Translations under genes and position numbers: made by a program
Notes under the pieces: model-generated
The model's input: only the letters and a program-made list of their open reading frames with translations
Databases searched by the model: none
Told to the model about the DNA's origin: nothing
Assembly: GCA_017451295.1 (NCBI GenBank)
Contig: JAFSPW010000049.1
Location: forward strand, 1 to 63,566
Reading direction: 5' to 3'
Source of the DNA: Clostridia bacterium
GTDB lineage: Bacteria > Bacillota > Clostridia > Christensenellales > CAG-138
DNA: 63,566 nt
Shown here: piece by piece, positions 10,031 to 42,847 of the stretch
Layout: each line of letters begins with the position of its first letter
Numbering within the stretch: position 1 is the stretch's first letter

Positions 10031-10323
10031 AAGCCTGTCTGCTGGGCCTGAAGGCCGTTTGCGACGATTGCGGCGCCTGCGAGGAGGACCGCTGCGACCT
10101 GGACCCCAATAAGCTGTGCGATAACTGTTTCAAGTGCCTGGAAATCACCCAGAGCTATCGGGAGATTCCCATCGGCCGCATGCTAATGGACAGCAGCGGC
10201 GGGGGAGAGCTGTACGCTATTCTGGACGATGAACCTCTGGAGCCGGAGATGGATTTGAATCTGGAGCAGGGGGATTCGACGGGAGGTCCGGACGATTTGG
10301 AATGGTATCCTCCCGAAGCGTAA
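10027..10323 (+). CDS. Small Cys-rich hypothetical protein with acidic tail
   Basis: CDDCGAC..CDLDPNKLCDNCFKC; ATGA overlap with the upstream gene and a strong GGAGG RBS. Confidence 0.7.
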   Translation: MKACLLGLKAVCDDCGACEEDRCDLDPNKLCDNCFKCLEITQSYREIPIGRMLMDSSGGGELYAILDDEPLEPEMDLNLEQGDSTGGPDDLEWYPPEA

Positions 10324-11350
10324 TATACTTGGCTGCCTGCCGCCGTCGTTCCGTTTCGATGGCGGCATAATGTTTGCGGGTGGTGTTCACATCCTTGTGG
10401 CCCAGCACATCCGCCACCAGATAGATGTCCCCGCTTTCCTGATACAGCATGGTGCCATAGGTGCTGCGGAGCTTATGCGGCGTAATCTTCTTCAGGGGTG
10501 TTGCTACCTGGGCATATTTTTTCACCAGATTCTCCACCGCCCGCACGCCGATGCGCTTGCGCTGCATGGAGAGGAAGAGGGCTTGTTCGTGGCCCGGCAA
10601 GGTCTCCATGGTTTCCCGCTTCTCTAAATACGCAATCAACGCCTGCCGCACTTCCGGCCCAAAGGAAAGTACCTCCTGATTGCCGCCCTTGCGAGTGACC
10701 AAAAAGGCATCGGAAGCAAAGTCCACATCGTCAATGTCGATGCCCACCAGTTCGCTGATACGTATTCCGGTGCCCAAAAACAGGGTTAAAATGGCCACAT
10801 CCCGCAGCTTTGTAGCCTGATGATACAGCTTTTCCCGTTCGCTCAAGCCCTTGCCGCCCTCTGCAATATCCAGCAAATCCGCCACCTCGTTGGCTTCGAG
10901 GCGGATAATGGCCTTTTCATGAAGCTTGGGCGTGTCCACCAGGGCGGCCGGGTTGTTTTCAATGAGCTGCTGCTTGTGATAATACTTAAAAAATGACCGT
11001 ATAGCGGACAATTTTCGTGCTTTTGCCCGTTCGTTGTTTTCCCGTTCCCTTTGATCTGATCCCGTGTACAGGGACACATGCTCCAAAAAGACTTCAATAT
11101 CCATGGCGGTGATGCTGCCAAAGTCGGCAAGGGTCAGATCGGCGGGAGACTTGCCCTGGAAGTTCGGCAGTTCCTCCACGCAGAATCGAAAGAAATTCCG
11201 CAAATCCACCGCATACCCATATCTGGTCAGCACGCTGGTCTGGGGTTCCATGGCGCGAAAATAACTCCCGGCAAACTTCGGAAGCTCCTGCAGCATGGTC
11301 CTAAGCTTCTGGGTGTAATCTTTTTTCTTTTGGAGGGGGTAATCACTCAT
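10217..11350 (-). CDS. Xer-family tyrosine recombinase (clostridial XerC/XerS-like)
   Basis: RDVAILTLFLGTGIRISEL, RKGG, HKLRSTYGT, LGHKDVNTTRKHY give the catalytic R-K-H-R-H-Y set; N-terminal SAM-like domain. Confidence 0.92.
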   Translation of the reverse strand: MSDYPLQKKKDYTQKLRTMLQELPKFAGSYFRAMEPQTSVLTRYGYAVDLRNFFRFCVEELPNFQGKSPADLTLADFGSITAMDIEVFLEHVSLYTGSDQRERENNERAKARKLSAIRSFFKYYHKQQLIENNPAALVDTPKLHEKAIIRLEANEVADLLDIAEGGKGLSEREKLYHQATKLRDVAILTLFLGTGIRISELVGIDIDDVDFASDAFLVTRKGGNQEVLSFGPEVRQALIAYLEKRETMETLPGHEQALFLSMQRKRIGVRAVENLVKKYAQVATPLKKITPHKLRSTYGTMLYQESGDIYLVADVLGHKDVNTTRKHYAAIETERRRQAAKYITLREDTIPNRPDLPSNPPAPDSNPSPAPEVHRPE

Positions 11351-15600: not shown

Positions 15601-18288
15601 TTATTCCCCCGTATCGCCCTTTTGTGCATCAGAAAGTGCCTCCCGCAAGGCGGCGGTGGCCTGTTCGAGGTCCGCAGCCGCAGCCGCCTCTCTGGCTCGT
15701 TCCAAAGCCTGGTTCAAGGCATCCATCGTATCCTGAGACAGGGTATCCCCCTGGCTGTTGATAAACGTTTCCGCCTGCTGCACCAGCGCATCCCTTGCCT
15801 CCCTGGCCGCCTTTATGGCATCGTTCACATTGCACACCGGCAGGCTGTTGATATAGGCCTCGGGCGCCTTGTCCGTGCGTACAAAGGTATCCGCAAATAT
15901 CTTTTGAAGCACCTGGTCCGAAAGGTCAAAGAAGGGTGAATCCGGGCGAATGAGCACATAGGTCATCTGCTTTACGGTGCTGGGGTCGCAGGTGGCGGCG
16001 GCCCGACAGTTGCTGTCGGTGCAGATGTTGACGGTCACATGCATATCGCAGTATTCCGAAGGAACGGAGTCATAGTCGAACCAATCCGTAACCGGCGCAA
16101 ACTTTTTTCCGTTATCCTTATATTCGATACAGGCAGCCCCGGCCAGCTTCCCGGATATGGGGCAAACCGTGCGCTCCACCATGCCCAACATGGCAGGGGT
16201 TTCGTTGATGATGGGCCGGTTCTCATGGCCTTCCATGGCCTTTTCCATGAAAGCCTTCCACAAGGCAGCCGCATAGTCGCCGCCGGTGGACCCGGTTTTT
16301 AGCTTGTTGCTGGGCAAATCGTGGCCGATATACACCACCGCCGTGTAGTCGCAGGTCATGCCTGCAAAATAGACGCTGGAGTACTTGGAGTTGGTGCCTG
16401 TCTTCCCTGCCACCGTGAAGCCGGAGAGCTTAGCTTGCTTGCCCGTGCCGCTGTTCACCGCCTCGGTGAGAATGTCCACCAGCTGATAGGCGGTGCTGGC
16501 CTGTTCAAACACCTTCCGGGAGCCGGAGCGCAGCAGGTCTGCATCCAGCACCACCCGGCCGTTTTCGTCCTCCACCCGGGTAAAGGAGATAGGCGCCCAG
16601 TAATACCCATTGTTGGCGATGGCCGCATAGGCGGCGCACATCTGAATGGGGGTGATGCCGGAGGTGCCCAGGGCAAGGCCCGGACCGTCCAGGTTCAGTT
16701 GAGAGGAAGGAATCCCCAAACGCTCCATATATTGGGCAGCGGTATACACCCCCACATGCTCCATGAGCACCCGGGCCGCCACCACATTGAGGCTTTGTGC
16801 CAGCCCCGTCCGCACTGTGGTAAAGCCATAGGTACGGCTGGAAGTCAGCCCGCCGCCGGGATAGCCTTTCTCTGTGCCCCAGCCGGCGATGGTGCCTTCC
16901 GCATTGATGACTACGGAAGCCGGTGAAAGGCCCTTGTCCAGCGCCGGACCATACACGGCCAGGGGCTTGATGCTGGACCCCACCTCCGTAAAGCTGGTGG
17001 CGCGGTTGAGACCCTTACGAATCAGAGGCTCATCCCTGCCGCCCACAATCGCCCGCAGAAAGCCGGTGGATTGGTCAATAATCACCGCTGCTGCCTGGGG
17101 CTCCACGGTCTGTATGGTAACGGTTTCGGAGATTTCCTCCGTCATGGTGGCGGCGTTGGCATCCGCCAGTTCCGGGTAACCGGTAAAGGTGGAGAGGGTT
17201 TGCTGCACCATGTTCTGCAGCTGCGGATCCACGGTGGTATAGATTTTATACCCGCCGGTCCGCAGCTTGTTTTCATAATAGGTTCGGTTCGCCGCCGTAT
17301 CCGCCACGCCGTCCATGGCCATCCAATGGGTGATAACGTCGGAAATGGCGTACTCCACGAAGTAGGCCATGTCGTACATCCGGGCGTTTTCGCTTTCGGG
17401 GAGAATGGAGTCCTGCTCCTCCATGGCAGTTAGATATTGGTCCCTGGTGATATACCCGTTCTGATACATGCGGCCCAGCACCGTGTCCGTCCGGTTCTTG
17501 GTGCGCTCATAGGCGTTCTCGGCCCGGTAATACATGTTCTGCCGGGGGTTATAGAAATAGGGGCTCTGGGTCAGTCCTGCCAGCAGCGCGCACTCCCGAA
17601 TGCTCAGCTCCGAAAGCTCCTTGCCAAAATAGTCCTTGCTGGCGGCCTTCACCCCGTAGTTGGAGCCACCCAGGTAGATGTCGTTCAAGTAGGCCTCTAA
17701 AATCTGGTCCTTGCCGATAACCTTCTCCAGCTGGATAGCCAAATACGCCTCCTGGACCTTCCGCTTGTAGGTGCGCTGGGAGCCCAGAATCTTATTCTTA
17801 ATCAGCTGTTGGGTGATGGTGCTGCCGCCGGAGGAATTGCTGTTGCCCAAAATCTCCAGGACGGCAGAGAACAGCCGCTTAAAGTCCACCCCCTGGTGCT
17901 TATAAAAGCGCACGTCCTCAATGGAAACGAAAGCATTCTTGAGCATATCGGGAATCTCGTTAAAATCTGCCCAATCCCGATACTCCATGGAGGATAGGCT
18001 GGTAATCTCCACCCCATCCTTATCGTATAGATAGCTGGTCCTATCGCTCTTAGTCAGGGCCGAGACCTCCATCACCGGCGTGGAATCCACATAGGCCTTC
18101 CCCACCCCATACACAAGGCCCAGGCCGCCAAAGCCCATGACGAGTATAGCAAACAACAGCAGCTTTAGCCCCATGAACAACACATCCAAGGCAAAGGGGC
18201 GCTGCTTCTTCTGTCCGCTGACAAAGGGGGATTGGCCCTGCTTGAAAAAGATTCTATTCTCCATTTGATTTCGTTGTTCTTTTTTCAT
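15601..18288 (-). CDS. Class A penicillin-binding protein (transglycosylase/transpeptidase)
   Basis: EDVRFYKHQGVD, GGSTITQQLIKN, RKVQE; transpeptidase SSIK, SLN and KTGT motifs. Confidence 0.93.
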   Translation of the reverse strand: MKKEQRNQMENRIFFKQGQSPFVSGQKKQRPFALDVLFMGLKLLLFAILVMGFGGLGLVYGVGKAYVDSTPVMEVSALTKSDRTSYLYDKDGVEITSLSSMEYRDWADFNEIPDMLKNAFVSIEDVRFYKHQGVDFKRLFSAVLEILGNSNSSGGSTITQQLIKNKILGSQRTYKRKVQEAYLAIQLEKVIGKDQILEAYLNDIYLGGSNYGVKAASKDYFGKELSELSIRECALLAGLTQSPYFYNPRQNMYYRAENAYERTKNRTDTVLGRMYQNGYITRDQYLTAMEEQDSILPESENARMYDMAYFVEYAISDVITHWMAMDGVADTAANRTYYENKLRTGGYKIYTTVDPQLQNMVQQTLSTFTGYPELADANAATMTEEISETVTIQTVEPQAAAVIIDQSTGFLRAIVGGRDEPLIRKGLNRATSFTEVGSSIKPLAVYGPALDKGLSPASVVINAEGTIAGWGTEKGYPGGGLTSSRTYGFTTVRTGLAQSLNVVAARVLMEHVGVYTAAQYMERLGIPSSQLNLDGPGLALGTSGITPIQMCAAYAAIANNGYYWAPISFTRVEDENGRVVLDADLLRSGSRKVFEQASTAYQLVDILTEAVNSGTGKQAKLSGFTVAGKTGTNSKYSSVYFAGMTCDYTAVVYIGHDLPSNKLKTGSTGGDYAAALWKAFMEKAMEGHENRPIINETPAMLGMVERTVCPISGKLAGAACIEYKDNGKKFAPVTDWFDYDSVPSEYCDMHVTVNICTDSNCRAAATCDPSTVKQMTYVLIRPDSPFFDLSDQVLQKIFADTFVRTDKAPEAYINSLPVCNVNDAIKAAREARDALVQQAETFINSQGDTLSQDTMDALNQALERAREAAAAADLEQATAALREALSDAQKGDTGE

Positions 18289-18375
18289 GGGACGATTATA
18301 CCATACCGTCCGAATTAAGCAAACAGGAATCCGCTTTGTTCAAAAATCTCTCACAAAAAAATTTTCAAAAACCCC

Positions 18376-18494: not shown

Positions 18495-18527
18495 GAAAAA
18501 AGCACTGCAAGAGCAGTGCTTTTTTTC
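18495..18527 (+). terminator. Intrinsic terminator after tRNA-Ala
   Basis: GAAAAAAGCACTGC-AAGA-GCAGTGCTTTTTTTC. Confidence 0.8.
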
Positions 18528-18750
18528 AACGAAATCCGTCCTTGCGGACGGGTGAAATCCGCTGCGCGGGTGAAATCGCCTGCGGCGGTGAAATCTGGAG
18601 GACGGATTTCATTTCATCGCGAGCGCAGCGAACGATTTCATCAAAGGTCTCAGCCTTTGATTTCACCTTTTGCCGCAAGGCAAAAGATTTCACTTTGTCC
18701 CGAGGGTTCGAATCCATCTATCAAAACGAAAAATCCATCTTTTTCATACC
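18528..18750 (+). repeat. Structured tRNA-3'-linked element, copy A (core GGTGAAATC)
   Basis: AACGAAATC/GGTGAAATC at 18528, 18551, 18569, 18587; inverted GATTTCAYY at 18605/18610, 18634, 18659, 18686; hairpins between the motifs; near-identical inverted copy at 25924-26157. Confidence 0.9.
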
Positions 18751-18766
18751 ACACAGGTATAAAAAA

Positions 18767-18871
18767 GGGAGAGTCGAACTGGGTGAGGGAGTGAATGAGG
18801 CCCCAGCGGGGCCTAAGGGCCGAACCCTGACCGAGCCCGCAGGCAAGAGGAGACTCTCCCCACCTCCACCA
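18767..18871 (+). repeat. tmRNA-3'-end-derived fold-back element (att-like remnant)
   Basis: GGGAGAGTCGAACT (18767-18780) is identical to 26199-26212. GACTCTCCCCACCTCCACCA (18852-18871) is the last 20 nt of tmRNA in the opposite orientation. A terminator-like hairpin follows. Confidence 0.85.
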
Positions 18872-19091
18872 CAAGTTCCTTACTCAAACCCCTGTCTAAA
18901 AGGCAGTGATTCGGGTAAGGAATTTTTTATTGCTATCTGCAATAGTGTCGATTCCCATAATCCAATAAAAAACCGCTTTGCGCGGGGAGACCATACGCGA
19001 TTTGCAAACCGAAGGGTCTGTCGATCGGTCATTGATTTAAAACGTCCTACCCCTTATAATAACGTTATATATGACAATGGAGGAATGACGA

Positions 19092-21072: not shown

Positions 21073-21666
21073 TTATTTCAGAGGCAGAAAATCCCTGATC
21101 GACGGCCTTTCATCGTTGGCTATCTCAAACTCATATAGAACGGTCCCCTGCGAAATCTTGGTCATATTGATGTTCAAAACGGTTCCGTCCGGAGCCAGGG
21201 CGACATACACATCCAAGCCTTCCGTTCGGGAGAGCAGCTGGTTGCTCAACAATTGAGCAAGGGAGAAATCGGGGCTGTAGAACGTGCCAATTCCCATTTC
21301 GCGAATGGTTCCACCGGCAAAATCCTGAGCAAACAAATCCTTTAGCATATACAGGTGTAGAGCAAGCTCTTCCGCCTCGTGAACCTGATTGTCTGCCAAC
21401 ATGGCATCTGTCAGTTCCACCTGTGTATCTATGGTTTCTTCATTCGCTGCCGTGAAAGGATATACATAGTAGGTTCTGATGCCATCCACCAGTTTCCCCA
21501 CATGGATTTCATCATCTTTGTATAGATACACGGTGTAGTTCCCGGTTTCTATAAAGCGCTTTGCTTTACGATAGGCGTCTTTTCAAAAGCGTTGACAACC
21601 CCCAGTACAAAGCAGCAGCGCCATGCTGCACAGAATTGAAGCTATTTTAATGTTCCATCTTCTCAC
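21073..21666 (-). pseudogene. Lipoprotein gene interrupted by an in-frame TGA at codon 28
   Basis: GTG at 21666 reads MRRWNIKIASILCSMALLLCTGGCQRF*KDAYRKAKRFIETGNYTVYLYKDD..., in frame with ORF 21073..21531; TGA at 21583-21585. Confidence 0.65.
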
Positions 21667-22361
21667 TGCTGTTCTCCCCCTTGAAGCCTCATCTGATACA
21701 GCCCGTCTTCACCCTGAATCTCTATGTGCAGTATGCCGTTTGGCCAGAAACCTTCGCATCGCCCATACCAAAATGTCCCTCCTATTTCAGTCAGCCTTTT
21801 TCTCATTTCATCGGTCTCTGGACAGGATATGTTTGCAGAGTCATCATATCCACGAATCACAATGTAGCAGTCAGATGATTTCTTGGTTTTCAATACATCC
21901 ACGGTGTATTTCTCTGCTTTTTCCTGTGCAATTATAATCCCCGCCTTATTCGTGGTAGATGGCATCAACCATCTGTTGCCTCTATGGGCGTAAACCGCCA
22001 GGTCTGTGATTATAGCTGTACCAGACGAGTAGTGAACCTCCGTTTGAATGACACCCAGGGTGCTATTCTCCCCTTCCACGGTTTCCACAATAGTCCCGCC
22101 GCAATAGTATTGGTTAGCATTTTCCAAAGAGGAAAAACCCGCCAAATTTTCTAACGGATGCCCCAAATAATCCATTCCAAAAGTCAGAGCAGAAAAACCG
22201 ATTACTGACCAGTAAACTACCTCAACCCATTTTGGTTTCTTACTCTTTGGAATAAAAACAGTAATGGAAACAATCCATGCTCCAGCCAACAGGATAAAGC
22301 GCATCCACGCAGCCCCTGGCCATCGACTCATGGGCAAAAGACTGGTATATTCATAAAACAT
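21663..22361 (-). CDS. Hypothetical membrane protein with extracytoplasmic C-terminal domain
   Basis: 232-aa ORF with two N-terminal TM helices and a GGAGGG RBS. Confidence 0.7.
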   Translation of the reverse strand: MFYEYTSLLPMSRWPGAAWMRFILLAGAWIVSITVFIPKSKKPKWVEVVYWSVIGFSALTFGMDYLGHPLENLAGFSSLENANQYYCGGTIVETVEGENSTLGVIQTEVHYSSGTAIITDLAVYAHRGNRWLMPSTTNKAGIIIAQEKAEKYTVDVLKTKKSSDCYIVIRGYDDSANISCPETDEMRKRLTEIGGTFWYGRCEGFWPNGILHIEIQGEDGLYQMRLQGGEQQ

Positions 22362-22522
22362 GCAACGTCCCTCCCTATATAAAAGTCATAATAGATGTTT
22401 CCAGCGGTCTCTCTTTCCTCTTTTGCAAAGGCTTTCATCAAATATGACAATCTTGAGGCGTAAAAATCTACTGAAAATTTTAATATATTTTCGTGATGAA
22501 GTAAAGATGTCTAATATAAGAT

Positions 22523-22729
22523 AATGATGTCGCCGCAAAAGCGGCTGATGATGTATCGGCTGAGGCCGAAATGATGCAGCGCGCTTTACGCGCAATGATG
22601 CGATGGTTGCCCTATGTGCCCGCAGGCACACATCATTGCCGAAGGCAACATCATGTGCCAAGCACGCATCATTTGCCCGTCAGGGCAAACATCATTGCAT
22701 AAAGCACGCCGAAGCGTGCTTTTTTCTGG
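22523..22729 (-). repeat. Structured element, copy D (variant core AATGATGY), preceded on the minus strand by CCA plus the tmRNA-type terminator
   Basis: RCATCATK at 22689, 22666, 22648, 22630 and RATGATGY at 22594, 22570, 22547, 22523, with hairpins between; 22701-22729 is identical to 26162-26190. Confidence 0.85.
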
Positions 22730-22829
22730 AAAAGGTAGACCGTTTTGATAGAATTTCCCGGAGGGGGGTGCATCTGTCCTTTAGGGAGGTTCAGCCATGG
22801 TCGAAGGGGATTCACTTTCAAAAGGGGGT

Positions 22830-23591
22830 TCAAAGTGAGCGATTGGACTGCCCCAGCGAACTTGGATTATCGCATATTGGTAATCTGTTAATATACGCTT
22901 TTACGTAATTTATACATGCCTCGACAAAATAGAACCTAAAATCCTCATAGTACAGAGATGTTTCAAAATGGTAATCTGTATTACGTCCGTGATTTGGTAG
23001 CGTTCTGTTTGCTAACAATTTCTCCGTTGTTGAAAATGACGTTAACCAATTCACTTCAGGGTCATCCCCATAAGCAAATAACTGTATTTCCCAGTATTCA
23101 CCATCATGGACAACTCTGTCTCTGACAAATTTAATGATTTCCAGATAATCAGAGATCGTTAGGCTATAACTGTTATCGAATAGAACACCGTTGATATAGT
23201 CAGTATATGATAATAAGCGAAAACGAGACAGAATACAATTCTTCCCTTCGTCACTAAAGCAATTAGCGAATACAGAATAGAACTGCTTTTTCTCTTTTTT
23301 ATCCAAACAACTCAGATGAAATAGTGACTCTAGACACGTTTTAATAAAGACTATTCGCAATCCATCCCGTACAGGCCAAATCTGATCAATCCTTGATGCT
23401 AGAGTTACAAAACGGTATATTTGATTAATCATTTGTCTTGGAATGCGATTGTTCCAATCAAAGCTGTAAATCCACTGAATGAAAGAAAGTGTTTTGCCTT
23501 CATTTTCGAAAAACGGCTTAAAAAATGAAACTAATCCCGCTTCATTTTCTGCTTCGATAGTTGCAAGATCCATAAGGATGCCCATCTCCAT
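22830..23591 (-). CDS. Hypothetical protein, possible HEPN-superfamily RNase
   Basis: 253 aa, AT-rich; helical region with CLESL and an R-x4-H motif (RDRVVH). Confidence 0.6.
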   Translation of the reverse strand: MEMGILMDLATIEAENEAGLVSFFKPFFENEGKTLSFIQWIYSFDWNNRIPRQMINQIYRFVTLASRIDQIWPVRDGLRIVFIKTCLESLFHLSCLDKKEKKQFYSVFANCFSDEGKNCILSRFRLLSYTDYINGVLFDNSYSLTISDYLEIIKFVRDRVVHDGEYWEIQLFAYGDDPEVNWLTSFSTTEKLLANRTLPNHGRNTDYHFETSLYYEDFRFYFVEACINYVKAYINRLPICDNPSSLGQSNRSL

Positions 23592-23605
23592 TCAATATTA
23601 GACTA

Positions 23606-25687
23606 CTAGGACAGCTTCTTTCTTCTACAAACTGGGCAACCCGAGCCATTTGCTCTATTGCAGATTTTAGCTTGCCATTCATGTCCGTATTTGCACAGCC
23701 ACCAAACTGTTTTGCCAGATTTTAGTGTAACTTGAGTTGGTAAAATCATACCATTCCTTGTGGTATTCCATTCAGCAGCAAGATCAGGATTTATTGTTGC
23801 CAAATCATTAAAACCTAGCAGTACTTTATTCCCTGAACAATATGGACAACCAGAACCCTGTGAACGACTCCCGATTGTTGCTTGCCACTCATGTCCTTCG
23901 GAGCATTTCCACCAAACCTTTCGAGTGCTGCCTCGACTAACCATAGTTGGAGACAATTCTCCGTTTTTTGTTGGGTGCCATTCTAAGGCAAGGTTTGGAT
24001 GAGTGGTTTTCAAATCGTTATATCCTTGTAGCACCATTTGGCCTGAACAATATGGACAGCCGTATCCACTACTACGATTTGCAATTTCCATTTTCCACTC
24101 ATGCCCCTCGGAGCATATCCACCAAACCCTTCGATGGCTGCCATGACTAACCTTAGTTGGCGACAATTCTCCGTTTTTTGTTGGGTGCCAATCTAAAGCA
24201 AGGTTTGGATGAGTGGTTTTCAAATCGTTATATCCTTGTAAAACCAGTCGACCCGCACAATAAGGACAGCTGTATCCTTTTCTACGATCACTAACTTTTG
24301 CCTGCCATTCGTGCCCTTTGTCGCATTTCCACCACACCTTTTTTCCTGATGAGTTGGAAACTAATTCAGGGGTCAACAGACCATTTCTCTCATAGTTCCA
24401 TTCATTTGCAATTTCAGGACACTTTGAGACCAAACTATTCGCCTTTTCAGCAATAATATATTGTTCGTATATTCTAGATGCATCTCTTTCAACATCCACA
24501 TCTATCTTCTCAAATCCAATTTGCTCAAGCAGTGCGCCAATAGCCCAGTTTAAAGATTCTTTGTTTGATGATACACGATATTCAATCGTGTTACCAGAAA
24601 CAGAATTCTTATCACTCTCAACAACCGAAATAATACGAATACCTTTTTGAGCAAAGAACGCTATTTTCTTCTTATCATGTTCTTGTTTGTCTTTGTGATA
24701 GTATCTACCATTATGCTCAATCCCTATTCTGTACTTTGGAAGATATATGTCTATTTCTTTTCCGTAATCTGTATTTCTACTCTCTGCTGAAGTTAGCATT
24801 CTACAATAGAACAGAATTGCTTGCTCCGGAAAGGATGTTTTTAGTTCTTGATTACAAATTGGACACCCAGCTCTTCTAAGTGTTCTGCTATCTATACTTG
24901 CCTGCCATTCGTGACCTTTTCTGCATATCCACCAAACTTTCTTACTCGATCCTGCAGTCACATCAGTCGGATCTAGTGTTCCGTTTTTAGTTGGATGCCA
25001 TTCCTCCGCAACATCAGGGCATATTGTAGCTAAGTCATTAAAACCTGCAAGTACCGTATGTCCCGAGCAGACAGGACAACCGTATCCTCTAATAGTTCGC
25101 TTAACTATCGTTTCTTTCCATTCATGCCCTAAGGAGCATTTCCACCATACTCTTTTTTGAGAGCCTGGCGGAACCATTGTTGGTAAAAGCTTTTGGTTCC
25201 TATTATAATTCCATTCTGATGCGATACTTGGATTCGTTGTAGTCAAGTCGTTAAATCCTATCCACACTTTTTGGTTTGCACAGTAAGGACATCCTGTTCC
25301 ACGCTCAGCTCGCTCAACGACCGCCGCTTGCCATTCATGTCCCAAAGAGCATTTCCACCATACTTTTTTGTTGGAACCAGAAGTAATCATTGTAGGCAAT
25401 AAACCATTATTTTTCTCGTAATTCCAGTCACTTGCGACTATTGGATTAGTTGATGCTAAATCGTTAAAGCCTCTTAACACTTTTCGATTTGAGCAATACG
25501 GGCATTTACTTCCCGCTATTGTGCGATTGTGAATTGGGGCCATCCATTCATGACCTTTATTGCAAATCCACCAAACTGTTTTATGCGATCCTGCAGTCAC
25601 ATCAGTTGGCCTTAGTGTTCCGTTTTGGGTTGGATGCCATTCTTTTGCAAGATCAGGATACTCAGAAGCTAATGATTTCTTTTCCAT
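23606..25687 (-). CDS. Zinc-ribbon (DUF4379-like treble-clef) repeat protein with a central PD-(D/E)XK/Vsr-like nuclease domain
   Basis: Eight ~67-aa repeats (EWHPTKNG..GS.KKVWW.C..GHEW.A.I..R..G.GCPYC), four on each side of SFPEQ..EIDIYLP..IGIEHNGRYYH..DKKK. Start is either 25687 or 25708. Confidence 0.85.
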   Translation of the reverse strand: MEKKSLASEYPDLAKEWHPTQNGTLRPTDVTAGSHKTVWWICNKGHEWMAPIHNRTIAGSKCPYCSNRKVLRGFNDLASTNPIVASDWNYEKNNGLLPTMITSGSNKKVWWKCSLGHEWQAAVVERAERGTGCPYCANQKVWIGFNDLTTTNPSIASEWNYNRNQKLLPTMVPPGSQKRVWWKCSLGHEWKETIVKRTIRGYGCPVCSGHTVLAGFNDLATICPDVAEEWHPTKNGTLDPTDVTAGSSKKVWWICRKGHEWQASIDSRTLRRAGCPICNQELKTSFPEQAILFYCRMLTSAESRNTDYGKEIDIYLPKYRIGIEHNGRYYHKDKQEHDKKKIAFFAQKGIRIISVVESDKNSVSGNTIEYRVSSNKESLNWAIGALLEQIGFEKIDVDVERDASRIYEQYIIAEKANSLVSKCPEIANEWNYERNGLLTPELVSNSSGKKVWWKCDKGHEWQAKVSDRRKGYSCPYCAGRLVLQGYNDLKTTHPNLALDWHPTKNGELSPTKVSHGSHRRVWWICSEGHEWKMEIANRSSGYGCPYCSGQMVLQGYNDLKTTHPNLALEWHPTKNGELSPTMVSRGSTRKVWWKCSEGHEWQATIGSRSQGSGCPYCSGNKVLLGFNDLATINPDLAAEWNTTRNGMILPTQVTLKSGKTVWWLCKYGHEWQAKICNRANGSGCPVCRRKKLS

Positions 25688-25923
25688 TTCATCACCCACA
25701 CTAGACAACGTGTATTAATGCTAGAATACCATAATACGGGCATTCTTTCAATATGAGGCAAATATAAAAATGGGTTTAGGGGTTCAAATTGAACGATTAC
25801 CCTCTGTGTCGATCACACCATAAACCATACGCTTCCCTTCCAAACGTAATCCACCTTAATATGATAACAGAAAAACAATAGGATTGCTGCTGTTAAAATA
25901 GCAATCCTATTCTGGCAATGGTG

Positions 25924-26157
25924 TACGAAAAAGATGGATTTGCGTTTTTGACAGATGGATTCAAACCCTCGGGACAAAGTGAAATCTTTTGCCTTGCGGC
26001 AAAAGGTGAAATCAAAGGCTGAGACCTTTGATGAAATCGTTCGCTGCGCTCGCGCTGAAATGAAATCCGTCCTCCACCCCGCGAAGCGGGATTTCACCGC
26101 CGCAGGCGATTTCACCCGCGCAGCGGATTTCACCCGTCCGCAAGGACGGATTTCGTT
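25924..26157 (-). repeat. Structured tRNA-3'-linked element, copy B (behind tmRNA)
   Basis: Near-identical reverse complement of 18528-18750, plus an extra central CCGCTTCGCGG hairpin. Confidence 0.9.
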
Positions 26158-26187
26158 GAAAAAAGCACGCCGAAGCGTGCTTTTTTC
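26158..26187 (-). terminator. Intrinsic terminator after tmRNA
   Basis: GAAAAAAGCACGC-TTCG-GCGTGCTTTTTTC on the minus strand. Confidence 0.8.
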
Positions 26188-26545
26188 TGGTGGAGGTGGG
26201 GAGAGTCGAACTCCCGTCCGAAGATGAGATGACCCAACTTTCTACGAGCGTAGCCGTCGTACAAGTATTCCCCTTGCGGCACTCCCAACGGCGGGATTGC
26301 CGGTCCGGTAGCTTCATAAAGTCCGGTCCGGGGCAAAGCTTACCCGGGTTCGTTCCCTATCCTAAATGACGCCCGAATCCGAGACGATAGGTCTTCTCGG
26401 GCGGACGCTGTACCGCACTTAGGCGGCGACAGGCATTGCGTTGTAGTTGTCTGTTATGTTTAAACAGTTCCCGCTTTTATCGAAGCGCGGGGCTTCGGCT
26501 CGCTTATCCGGCCCTCACTATCCCCGTCGAAACCATTTCACCCCC
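26188..26545 (-). ncRNA. ssrA: tmRNA; predicted tag (A)DNYNAMPVAA* at 26451-26419
   Basis: 5' GGGGGTGAAATGGTTTCGACGGGG, 3' GAGTTCGACTCTCCCCACCTCCACCA with G3-U pair; ATAACA-GAC resume context; tag ends in AA; directly downstream of smpB. Confidence 0.96.
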
Positions 26546-42227: not shown

Positions 42228-42581
42228 TCAATCGGCGCTTTGATTCTTTTTTGCTGTATTTACCGAGTAAACAAGCATTCTACGAAGGGAGCCGCACATA
42301 TGAATGAGCCCAGATACTGTATCCGATGGTGCAAGCTCTGCCTTCTGCATGAGCTCCAACCAGTATTCTGTTTCATAGCACTCTTTCAATGCAATTTGCA
42401 GTTTTACTATGAAATCCGCTCTGCTGTGGGCATAGTTTGCCTCACGAATATTTGCTCCAATACTGGTGGCGGAACGTTCCAACTGATTGACAAGGGAATA
42501 ATGTCCTTTTATAGTATCACACAGTTTCAATATATTAACGGAAAAATCCATTGAGAGTGCGGCAAGTTTGCTTTCAGCCAT
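42228..42581 (-). CDS. Four-helix-bundle protein (TIGR02436/23S-IVP family, Avd-like fold)
   Basis: LVNQLERSATSIGANIREA..AHSRADFIVKLQIALKECYETEYWLEL signature; GAGGTGA RBS. Confidence 0.92.
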   Translation of the reverse strand: MAESKLAALSMDFSVNILKLCDTIKGHYSLVNQLERSATSIGANIREANYAHSRADFIVKLQIALKECYETEYWLELMQKAELAPSDTVSGLIHMCGSLRRMLVYSVNTAKKNQSAD

Positions 42582-42629
42582 AGAAGTCACCTCATGAACA
42601 TCATATCACACGAAATGTAAGGGAACAAC

Positions 42630-42807
42630 GGTGAAATCGCGGCCCCGGCCGCGGTGAAATCAACGGCCAATGCCATTGGTGAAATCCTCTCACTTCGTCC
42701 TCGGGTGAAATGAAATCCGTCCCGCACCCCGCGAAGCGGGATTTCACCGCGAAGCGATTTCGCCCACCGAAGGTGGATTTCACCCGTCCGAAAGGACGGA
42801 TTTCGTT
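42630..42807 (-). repeat. Structured tRNA-3'-linked element, copy C (behind tRNA-Leu, upstream of the four-helix-bundle gene)
   Basis: GATTTCRYY at 42799, 42776, 42756, 42740 and GGTGAAAT(C/G) at 42704, 42678, 42653, 42630; hairpins differ in sequence from A/B but remain paired. Confidence 0.9.
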
Positions 42808-42847
42808 GAAAAAAGCACTTTTGTCTATCGACAAAAGTGCTTTTTTC
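42808..42847 (-). terminator. Intrinsic terminator after tRNA-Leu
   Basis: GAAAAAAGCACTTTTGTC-loop-GACAAAAGTGCTTTTTTC. Confidence 0.8.

Follow-up and report, generated by a model that had tools for sequence, protein, structure and literature searches.

Copy D, an array of short words and hairpins in the window (the whole stretch of 63,566 nt analysed here), is a genuine, selected relative of the Gut-1 motif (Rfam RF01706) in which the core word has been swapped. As an orphan copy, it stands at the head of one of the units stacked at a tRNA/tmRNA end, with a lineage-specific gene for a 232-aa protein as cargo. On balance, we favour the reading that D is a DNA-level recognition array of the kind that heads small units stacked behind tRNA and tmRNA genes, and that its word would be read by a cognate partner.

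Gut-1 has been present in Rfam since 2010 as an RNA without known function, at that time from gut metagenome reads only. The reading of such matches is altered by the findings that the catalogued motif represents half of a mirror-symmetric module, that this module exists in many word variants missed by the Rfam model, and that it lies between terminators and predicted promoters behind tRNA genes and multiplies within genomes. Read in this way, Gut-1 matches resemble mobile DNA more than small RNA genes. The match between word types and protein clades (see below) also gives the large PF05635 family, whose function is unknown, a concrete candidate ligand. Units carrying defence and other accessory genes may be an exchange route among uncultured gut and rumen Clostridia.

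Organization of copy D

The features are listed in Table 1. Array D was read along the minus strand, i.e. in the direction leading away from the CCA and the terminator. On the plus strand, its words start at 22524, 22548, 22571 and 22595 (ATGATG) and at 22631, 22649, 22667 and 22690 (CATCAT). These positions bear out the initial annotation, which had described four forward and four inverted motifs with hairpin spacers. The same applies to the forward spacing of 23-18-18 nt, which it had noticed in both D and copy A (GAAATC starts at 18531, 18554, 18572 and 18590), and to the spacing of the inverted motifs, which is 24-23-24 nt in D and 29-25-27 nt in the second block of copy A. The "stutter" reported for the first inverted motif is present as well. 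It arises because the centre is complementary to unit 1: a 12-base segment (22601-22612) is the complement of the first word plus the 5' arm of hairpin 1, with one mismatch.

Table 1. Coordinates of copy D, its parts and related features in the window
Feature	Position	Strand	Description
Copy A	18521-18749	+	Gut-1 double array plus tail, directly behind tRNA-Ala and terminator
First gene behind array D	21663-22361	-	232-aa protein, without Pfam family
Spacer between array D and first cargo gene	22362-22522	-	AT-rich; presumed site of predicted cargo promoter
Copy D array	22523-22697	-	ATGATG words x4 and inverted x4, differing small hairpins between them
Distal block of D	22523-22600	-	Inverted words x4 (minus-strand type CATCATT); three hairpins, all different; spacing 24-23-24
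Centre of D	22601-22630	-	Fourth hairpin (22615-22630), then 12-base segment (22601-22612)
Proximal block of D	22625-22697	-	Forward words CAATGATG, AATGATG, CATGATG, AATGATG; three different hairpins; spacing 23-18-18
Head of D unit	22701-22729	-	CCA, A-run, GC hairpin, shortened T-run; intrinsic-terminator type; 29-mer
Units between tmRNA terminator and D	22730-26161	-	Two units, stacked
First unit behind tmRNA terminator	26164-25923	-	A-type array, tail ending in CCA
Copy C	42629-42808	-	Gut-1 double array behind tRNA-Leu and terminator, followed by four-helix-bundle gene (42228-42590)

Six of the ten exact AATGATG sites of the window fell inside 22523-22696. Since the total of ten is close to the mean of shuffled sequences (10.3), it is the clustering that is non-random and not the word count. 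None of 200 shuffles folded as well as the D region, either on the minus strand (z = -5.15) or on the plus strand (z = -3.93). A -35/-10 or an extended -10 element could be read by eye directly after the array in other copies. The 232-aa protein encoded behind D was present, among 201 genomes of the bacterial family, in the window genome only.

The head of the D unit is a 29-mer (22701-22729) identical to positions 26162-26190 at the tmRNA end, and the identity ends exactly there. This identity had been pointed out initially together with the lack of a tRNA, and both hold (ARAGORN found no tRNA beside D). A particular link to the tmRNA does not: the 29-mer also occurred behind tRNA-Ser on contig C75, and its 24-base terminator core behind tRNA-Ala on contig C49. 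The 29-mer is therefore the generic head of the element family and no tmRNA-specific duplication.

In two ruminant-gut DNA runs (X5 and X9), summed contig depth over 22455-22731 was about 10-fold that of the flanks, which fits a repeat common to several genomes.

Relationship to Gut-1

Copies A to C are true matches of the Gut-1 model (67.4 to 69.7 bits). D had been considered to have no obvious primary-sequence similarity to them in its core; this needs correction, since the model aligned to its proximal block from 1 to 77 of 77 positions, forming each of the three stems at a score of 35.9 bits (E-values of 1.8e-5 on 451 nt and 1.5e-5 genome-wide), and its first word (CAATGA...) is common to D and A-C. 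The score of D lies below the curated gathering score of 50 bits because its word is UGAUG, the word of the model being UGAAAU. Structurally, D displayed what characterises Gut-1 over the full model length, namely four copies of a single short word with three small hairpins among them, at the same spacing.

The distal block of copy A matched the model on the opposite strand (34.9 bits). As both halves of this copy match on opposite strands, the element has a two-fold pseudo-symmetry, an unusual trait in an RNA gene, and the Rfam model covers one half of a mirror-symmetric element. Across the bacterial family, 34 of 101 genomes and 19 of 50 genera contained matches; a single genome had as many as 34, and they sometimes formed tandem runs.

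In the original description (Weinberg et al. 2010, PMC2864571), Gut-1 was known from human-gut metagenome reads only, was taken for a non-coding RNA and was graded "certainly RNA" in a table. The literature searched for the name yielded, besides that paper, one 2026 structure-prediction benchmark only. Elements described here differ from the published motif in that they are twice the model length and include a mirror block, a unit-1-complementary centre and a terminator head. They also occur in assembled genomes behind tRNA genes, whereas that paper deals with gut metagenome reads interpreted as RNA.

Other assignments were rejected. A k-turn or C/D-box reading of UGAUG gave weak matches to snoRNA families, far under their cut-offs, and inspection of the flanks showed no fit to a k-turn. 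Since the units are not identical repeats, the CRISPR and type III antitoxin kinds were ruled out as well.

D-type arrays in other genomes and word variants

At least seven further D-type arrays were found: one in the window genome (contig C78) and six in other gut or rumen Clostridia. The latter comprise five, among the matches listed, in Ruminococcus, Ruminococcaceae or Clostridia assemblies from gut or rumen, and one in genome G100. The loose D-type pattern used to scan genome contigs gave 5 true arrays among the 120 matches listed, the rest being mostly due to chance. Three of the eight arrays found stood behind complete tRNA genes (Ser, Leu and Arg), three behind a CCA or a tRNA 3' fragment only (the window copy, C78 and L113), and seven behind a terminator composed of A-run, hairpin and T-run. 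The initial annotation had named a lack of association with tDNA ends in other genomes as the outcome that would count against its proposal; the arrays found at such ends run the other way. When the eight arrays were aligned, words were constant and 13 of 49 predicted pairs stayed paired through changes on both sides. The hairpins are under selection.

The window genome is a 1.67-Mb draft in 114 contigs, 75% complete. It contained 67 arrays of D geometry with at least seven words (GTGAAAT, ATGATG, TGATAT, CGATAT, ATGAATTG, ATGATTTG and AATGAAGAC), in agreement with the earlier proposal of subfamilies that carry swapped motifs on one scaffold. Types E (CGATAT, 24 arrays) and F (ATGAATTG, some mixed with ATGATTTG, 27 arrays) were the most abundant, followed by A (7), G (4), D (2), H (AATGAAGAC, 2) and a single TGATAT array. 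Relatives added the words GTTATAT, GTGAAGT, ATGAAG and GCTAAAT. A TGA or CGA start was common to all word types, and the centre was the complement of unit 1 in types D, A, E and TGATAT. Across genera the word was kept and the spacers diverged, as is typical of sites that have a reader.

A contig end lay within 250 nt of 15 of the 24 E-type and 15 of the 27 F-type arrays, and such zones make up 3.4% of the genome; like other repeats, the arrays thus interrupt the assembly. Scans of three congeners, 95 to 97% complete, did not find the exact E and F patterns, except for a single match to the E pattern in G091, where the spacers do not resemble hairpins. This indicates that the E and F families expanded in the lineage of the window genome. 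None of the 24 E and 27 F arrays was scored at a tRNA gene, in an adjacency count with short windows that undercounts tRNA neighbours. No target site duplication was evident at the six E copies with enough flanking DNA. Likewise, no recurrent protein or ORF was detected beside the 67 arrays, the clusters obtained being translations of neighbouring repeats.

Some individual locations may be mentioned. E and F arrays (e.g. C108:5155-5300 and C82:14760-14929) began directly after the stop codon of a gene, with GC hairpins. The TGATAT-type array stood directly behind the second tRNA of a tRNA-6S RNA-tRNA row (L024 on contig C112, 2483-2932). The start of an H-type array (C8:1300-1446) was abutted by a weak C-terminal fragment of a tyrosine recombinase (20.7 bits, one stop codon).

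Association with tRNA and tmRNA ends

Three units follow one another behind the tmRNA gene of the window. The first is the A-type unit of Table 1. The second consists of a terminator, followed by the genes for proteins of 700 and 253 aa and by a tail with CCA at its end, and the third of a terminator, array D and the 232-aa orphan gene. The 700-aa protein (23606-25708, minus strand) is made up of eight repeats of the treble-clef zinc finger DUF4379 (E = 3.3e-171); the underlying DNA repeats measure 210 to 213 nt.

Five of the seven A arrays of the window genome began 34 to 45 nt behind a tRNA or tmRNA gene (tRNA-Ala twice, tRNA-Ser, tRNA-Leu and tmRNA), the other two being located at contig ends. 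These five were always directly behind a CCA and a terminator of one family, and the units were 95 to 100% alike at five different genes. Their landing site is therefore a generic 3' end and no particular gene. Near-identical A units behind five different tRNA/tmRNA genes are unexplained by an ordinary gene-specific integrase.

Similar stacks were encountered elsewhere. On contig C78, a D array and an SDH protease gene came behind a tRNA 3' fragment and a terminator; CCAAAG and a second copy of this terminator then preceded a further array, behind which a restriction-modification pair was encoded, consisting of an EcoRI-like methylase with a GmrSD/HNH nuclease. Genome G092 harboured three cargo-less tandem units of about 275 nt behind tRNA-Val, each composed of terminator, array and tail, and the first two ended in a 20-nt copy of the tRNA-Val 3' end. 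Units were thus bracketed by direct repeats of the target 3' end, i.e. the 20-nt copies in G092 and, in the window, CCA plus terminator (the 29-mer being the generic head). Other loci showed the orders tRNA-array-array-gene and tRNA-array-GNAT-array-tRNA. Tails contained a T-arm-like stretch ending in CCA.

The region from tRNA-Ala to tmRNA varies completely among congeners: it spans 15 to 18 kb there, has other content and lacks arrays, and it offered no clean boundary of an insertion. For one E and one F array, the flanks mapped to different contigs in three congeners, so that synteny is broken there and no clean pair of filled and empty sites was obtained. The A-type scan of viral contigs yielded at least 8 true double arrays among the 119 loci listed. 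Nearly all of them were at host tRNA flanks and one was not beside a tRNA; none was placed inside a phage genome. Two contig joints were set aside: 22696>26159 (one contig, side 24) is explicable by the 29-mer repeat, and 25915>22742 occurred in one low-depth contig.

Four-helix-bundle proteins of family PF05635

The gene beside copy C encodes a PF05635 protein (84.5 bits), whose closest solved chain is PDB 2rld (E = 1.7e-19). Such genes stood directly behind the arrays of copy C, of the D-type loci L084, L121, L158 and L346, and also of L331. Directly behind D itself there was none, this place being taken by the gene for the 232-aa protein. In the 75%-complete window genome, only two PF05635 genes were detected, beside one A and one E array, for 67 arrays with at least seven words. 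No four-helix-bundle gene of the D clade was present in this assembly, nor a cognate one for the D, F, G, H and TGATAT arrays.

As read by eye, hairpin-spaced arrays, with further words, preceded 11 of the 28 four-helix-bundle genes examined in the family's genomes, and at least 12 other genes were preceded by contiguous heptamer runs. A hand count of genomes, which are related and thus not independent, gave 18 with both Gut-1 and PF05635, 8 with PF05635 only, 16 with Gut-1 only and 59 with neither; PF05635 was thus missing from 16 of the 34 Gut-1-positive genomes.

A co-variation of core type with the phylogeny of adjacent four-helix-bundle proteins had been predicted initially, and the check gave the predicted result. 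On a tree of 32 of these proteins, word type required 18 changes (minimum 16, shuffle mean 22.1), and none of 1000 shuffles reached 18 or fewer. The five A-type proteins formed one clade (98/95) and the three D-type proteins another (90/51). This match is what a cognate reader predicts; co-inheritance by linkage alone could give the same. As array and gene are physically linked, co-variation by itself is no proof that the protein reads the word. The word is probably read by a cognate four-helix-bundle protein.

PF05635 also includes Avd of diversity-generating retroelements and the proteins of 23S rRNA intervening sequences, to which the products of the gene beside copy C and of those beside many other arrays are thereby related. 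In contrast to Avd, no reverse transcriptase was found in the window genome and the genes lie behind tRNA genes with word arrays; unlike those of intervening sequences, they are not located in an rRNA insert, nor are they in a retroelement.

Many of the PF05635 genes without arrays (L333 to L362) were preceded by purine-rich contiguous heptamer runs (e.g. AATTAGG, AGTAATA and GTGAAGG), which followed directly on the stop codon of the upstream gene. Some of these runs formed inverted sets around a hairpin, behind tRNA-Trp or tRNA-Cys.

Recombinases in the window genome

Neither a reverse transcriptase nor a serine recombinase was found in the window genome, and Y1 transposases (PF01797) gave no match in this 75%-complete assembly. 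Matches to PF00589 were located in the window (10217-11350) and on contigs C69, C71 and C8. Only two full tyrosine recombinases were present, neither beside arrays, and none of the PF00589 matches corresponded to an integrase in or beside an intact array unit. The window recombinase (377 aa, minus strand) lies among the housekeeping genes miaA, methionine gamma-lyase and RNase H, 7 kb from the tRNA-Ala stack. No recombinase or transposase was observed beside any array.

Nature and proposed role of the arrays

The array probably acts as DNA. Its mirror symmetry, its position between terminator and predicted promoter, its multi-copy spread, its near-pure Watson-Crick stems and its mirrored loops point to this. 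In 48 non-redundant arrays, stems comprised 1043 Watson-Crick, 6 G-T and 4 A-C pairs, in a census that penalises non-Watson-Crick pairs and may therefore undercount wobble pairs. Among the loops of the first block, TTC (31 of 121) and TGC (12 of 121) were dominant, and on the same strand GAA (21 of 103) and GCA (8 of 103) among those of the second, i.e. loop make-up is polar and mirrored between blocks. C-GNA-G triloops are unusually stable in DNA. Arrays sit between a terminator of intrinsic type and the predicted promoter region of the cargo. In contigs from RNA libraries, the tmRNA was covered deeply, cargo genes thinly and array D not at all, bearing in mind that contigs cannot show absence. 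The co-variation of the hairpins fits RNA equally with folded DNA.

Copy D is built on the scaffold of copies A to C, in which the terminator head is followed by four forward words with hairpins between them, then by a unit-1-complementary centre and by four inverted words; ATGATG replaces TGAAAT in D. According to the reading we favour, the module would most likely act as DNA, with palindromes possibly extruded or folded in a single strand, and not as a stable small RNA. Units accrue one after the other, immediately downstream of the CCA that closes a tRNA or tmRNA gene. A terminator of its own opens each unit, and many close with a tRNA-3'-like tail that would restore the landing site for the next. 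In some lineages, arrays may also multiply as scattered intergenic repeats. The heptamer word would be the recognition element of a family-specific partner, for which the Avd-like PF05635 protein, often encoded by the first gene behind the array, is the best candidate. A more elaborate version, which we regard as rather unlikely, is a hitherto undescribed integron-like platform of gut Clostridia for accessory genes at tRNA/tmRNA CCA ends. Units composed of terminator, array, optional cargo and tRNA-like tail would insert serially at any tRNA 3' end, the folded-DNA arrays would serve as recognition sites, and Avd-like adaptors with swappable word specificity would direct or license the process without a resident integrase.

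Following the Rfam view, the element might instead be a structured non-coding RNA, produced by read-through from tRNA or tmRNA genes or from its own promoter, whose hairpins expose UGAUG or UGAAAU as unpaired linkers that bind, or act as a sponge for, an RNA-binding protein, possibly an Avd-like one. We consider this unlikely. Avd proteins do bind RNA in diversity-generating retroelements, the hairpins co-vary, the D region has the strong predicted folds given above, and PMC2864571 grades Gut-1 as certainly RNA. However, the array begins right behind the A-run/hairpin/T-run terminator and stops before the predicted cargo promoter, its two blocks match the model on opposite strands with mirrored loops, and only 10 of 1053 pairs are not Watson-Crick. 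Moreover, the elements are multi-copy, break assemblies and expanded in the window lineage only. Equally improbable, in our opinion, are words that act as arm-type sites of an attP-like site, in integrase-less elements moved in trans by a tyrosine integrase at the tRNA/tmRNA 3' end, with the four-helix-bundle gene as frequent cargo or accessory factor. This would account for the tandem accumulation of units, for their bracketing by direct tRNA 3' copies (20 nt in G092, CCA plus terminator in the window and C78) and for the tails with a T-arm-like stretch ending in CCA. In addition, a 275-nt unit drawn as a circle places forward and inverted word blocks on either side of the core, just as lambda arm sites flank the attP core, and the window does encode a 377-aa tyrosine recombinase. 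Yet that enzyme lies among housekeeping genes and no integrase adjoins any array. The A unit, 95 to 100% identical, is found exactly at the CCA of five different genes, which leaves no room for a single attB. E and F arrays do not lie at tRNA genes (0 of 24 and 0 of 27 by the above count), and arm sites need no co-varying hairpin spacers.

We hold it very unlikely that there is no sequence-specific reader at all, i.e. that forward and inverted words pair in a folded single strand to form branched junctions and are kept uniform by slippage or gene conversion, in a selfish repeat of the REP/BIME or MITE kind. Predicted folds do pair forward with inverted words and leave the hairpins as branches, copies are numerous and dispersed, and their expansion concerns the window lineage only. 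Contigs from other samples also skip stretches between words, a weak indication (joints 18594>18659 and 26020>26091). Against this, all words share a TGA or CGA start and are conserved across genera while spacers diverge, word type tracks the clades of the four-helix-bundle proteins, and no Y1 transposase of the RAYT type was found in the 75%-complete window genome.

Comparison with known systems

REP/BIME elements and REPINs, which are moved by RAYT transposases, resemble the present arrays as intergenic short palindromes in direct and inverted sets, located behind genes near terminators and multiplied in lineage-specific bursts. REP copies, however, share their hairpin sequence, whereas here hairpins differ within one array and only the linker word is constant; the window genome also lacks a detectable Y1 transposase.

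The arm sites of lambda attP and the integrase-less "cis-mobilisable" elements at tRNA genes likewise display words of 7 to 10 bp in both orientations near a core shared with the tRNA 3' end, and the latter elements accrete in tandem as units bracketed by core copies. In contrast, the units described here have no integrase in or beside them, one unit type is found behind five tRNA/tmRNA genes, the spacers are hairpins, and in cargo-bearing units the two word blocks are on the same side of the core.

As in integrons, where attC sites separate cassettes, small accessory genes that are poor in promoters are lined up at a single landing site, with structure-defined imperfect palindromes between them, and the cargo is of a similar nature, including acetyltransferases, defence genes and orphan genes. 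By inspection, the organization is different: eight words and seven hairpins instead of R''-L''/L'-R', no IntI and no attI, a tRNA 3' end as landing site, and cargo with its own predicted promoter.

The heptads of the omega repressor (Inc18 plasmids) and the parC/ParR iterons offer a further parallel, since words of 7 to 11 bp in direct and inverted orientation are read there cooperatively by a small protein from an adjacent gene. There, the words adjoin one another or follow at even distances with no hairpins in between, ribbon-helix-helix proteins and not four-helix bundles act as readers, and the function (partition, repression) is known.

Inverted A arrays and short tmRNA-end units

Copy A (18521-18749) and the A array at 25923-26164 are near-identical inverted copies (95 to 100% identity), 7.2 kb apart. 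Recombination between them could invert the whole cargo segment, which would explain the misplaced copy of the tmRNA end at 18852-18874.

This copy belongs to a unit of about 110 nt (18770-18875), which stands behind tRNA-Ala in inverted orientation. In units of this type, the 3' end copies that of the tmRNA or of tRNA-Ala up to the CCA, the 5' end is its complement, and a terminator follows each unit. They were also observed at L171 of genome G067 (17400-18330 and 160-290), and three to four of them occurred in tandem behind the tmRNA gene of a congener.
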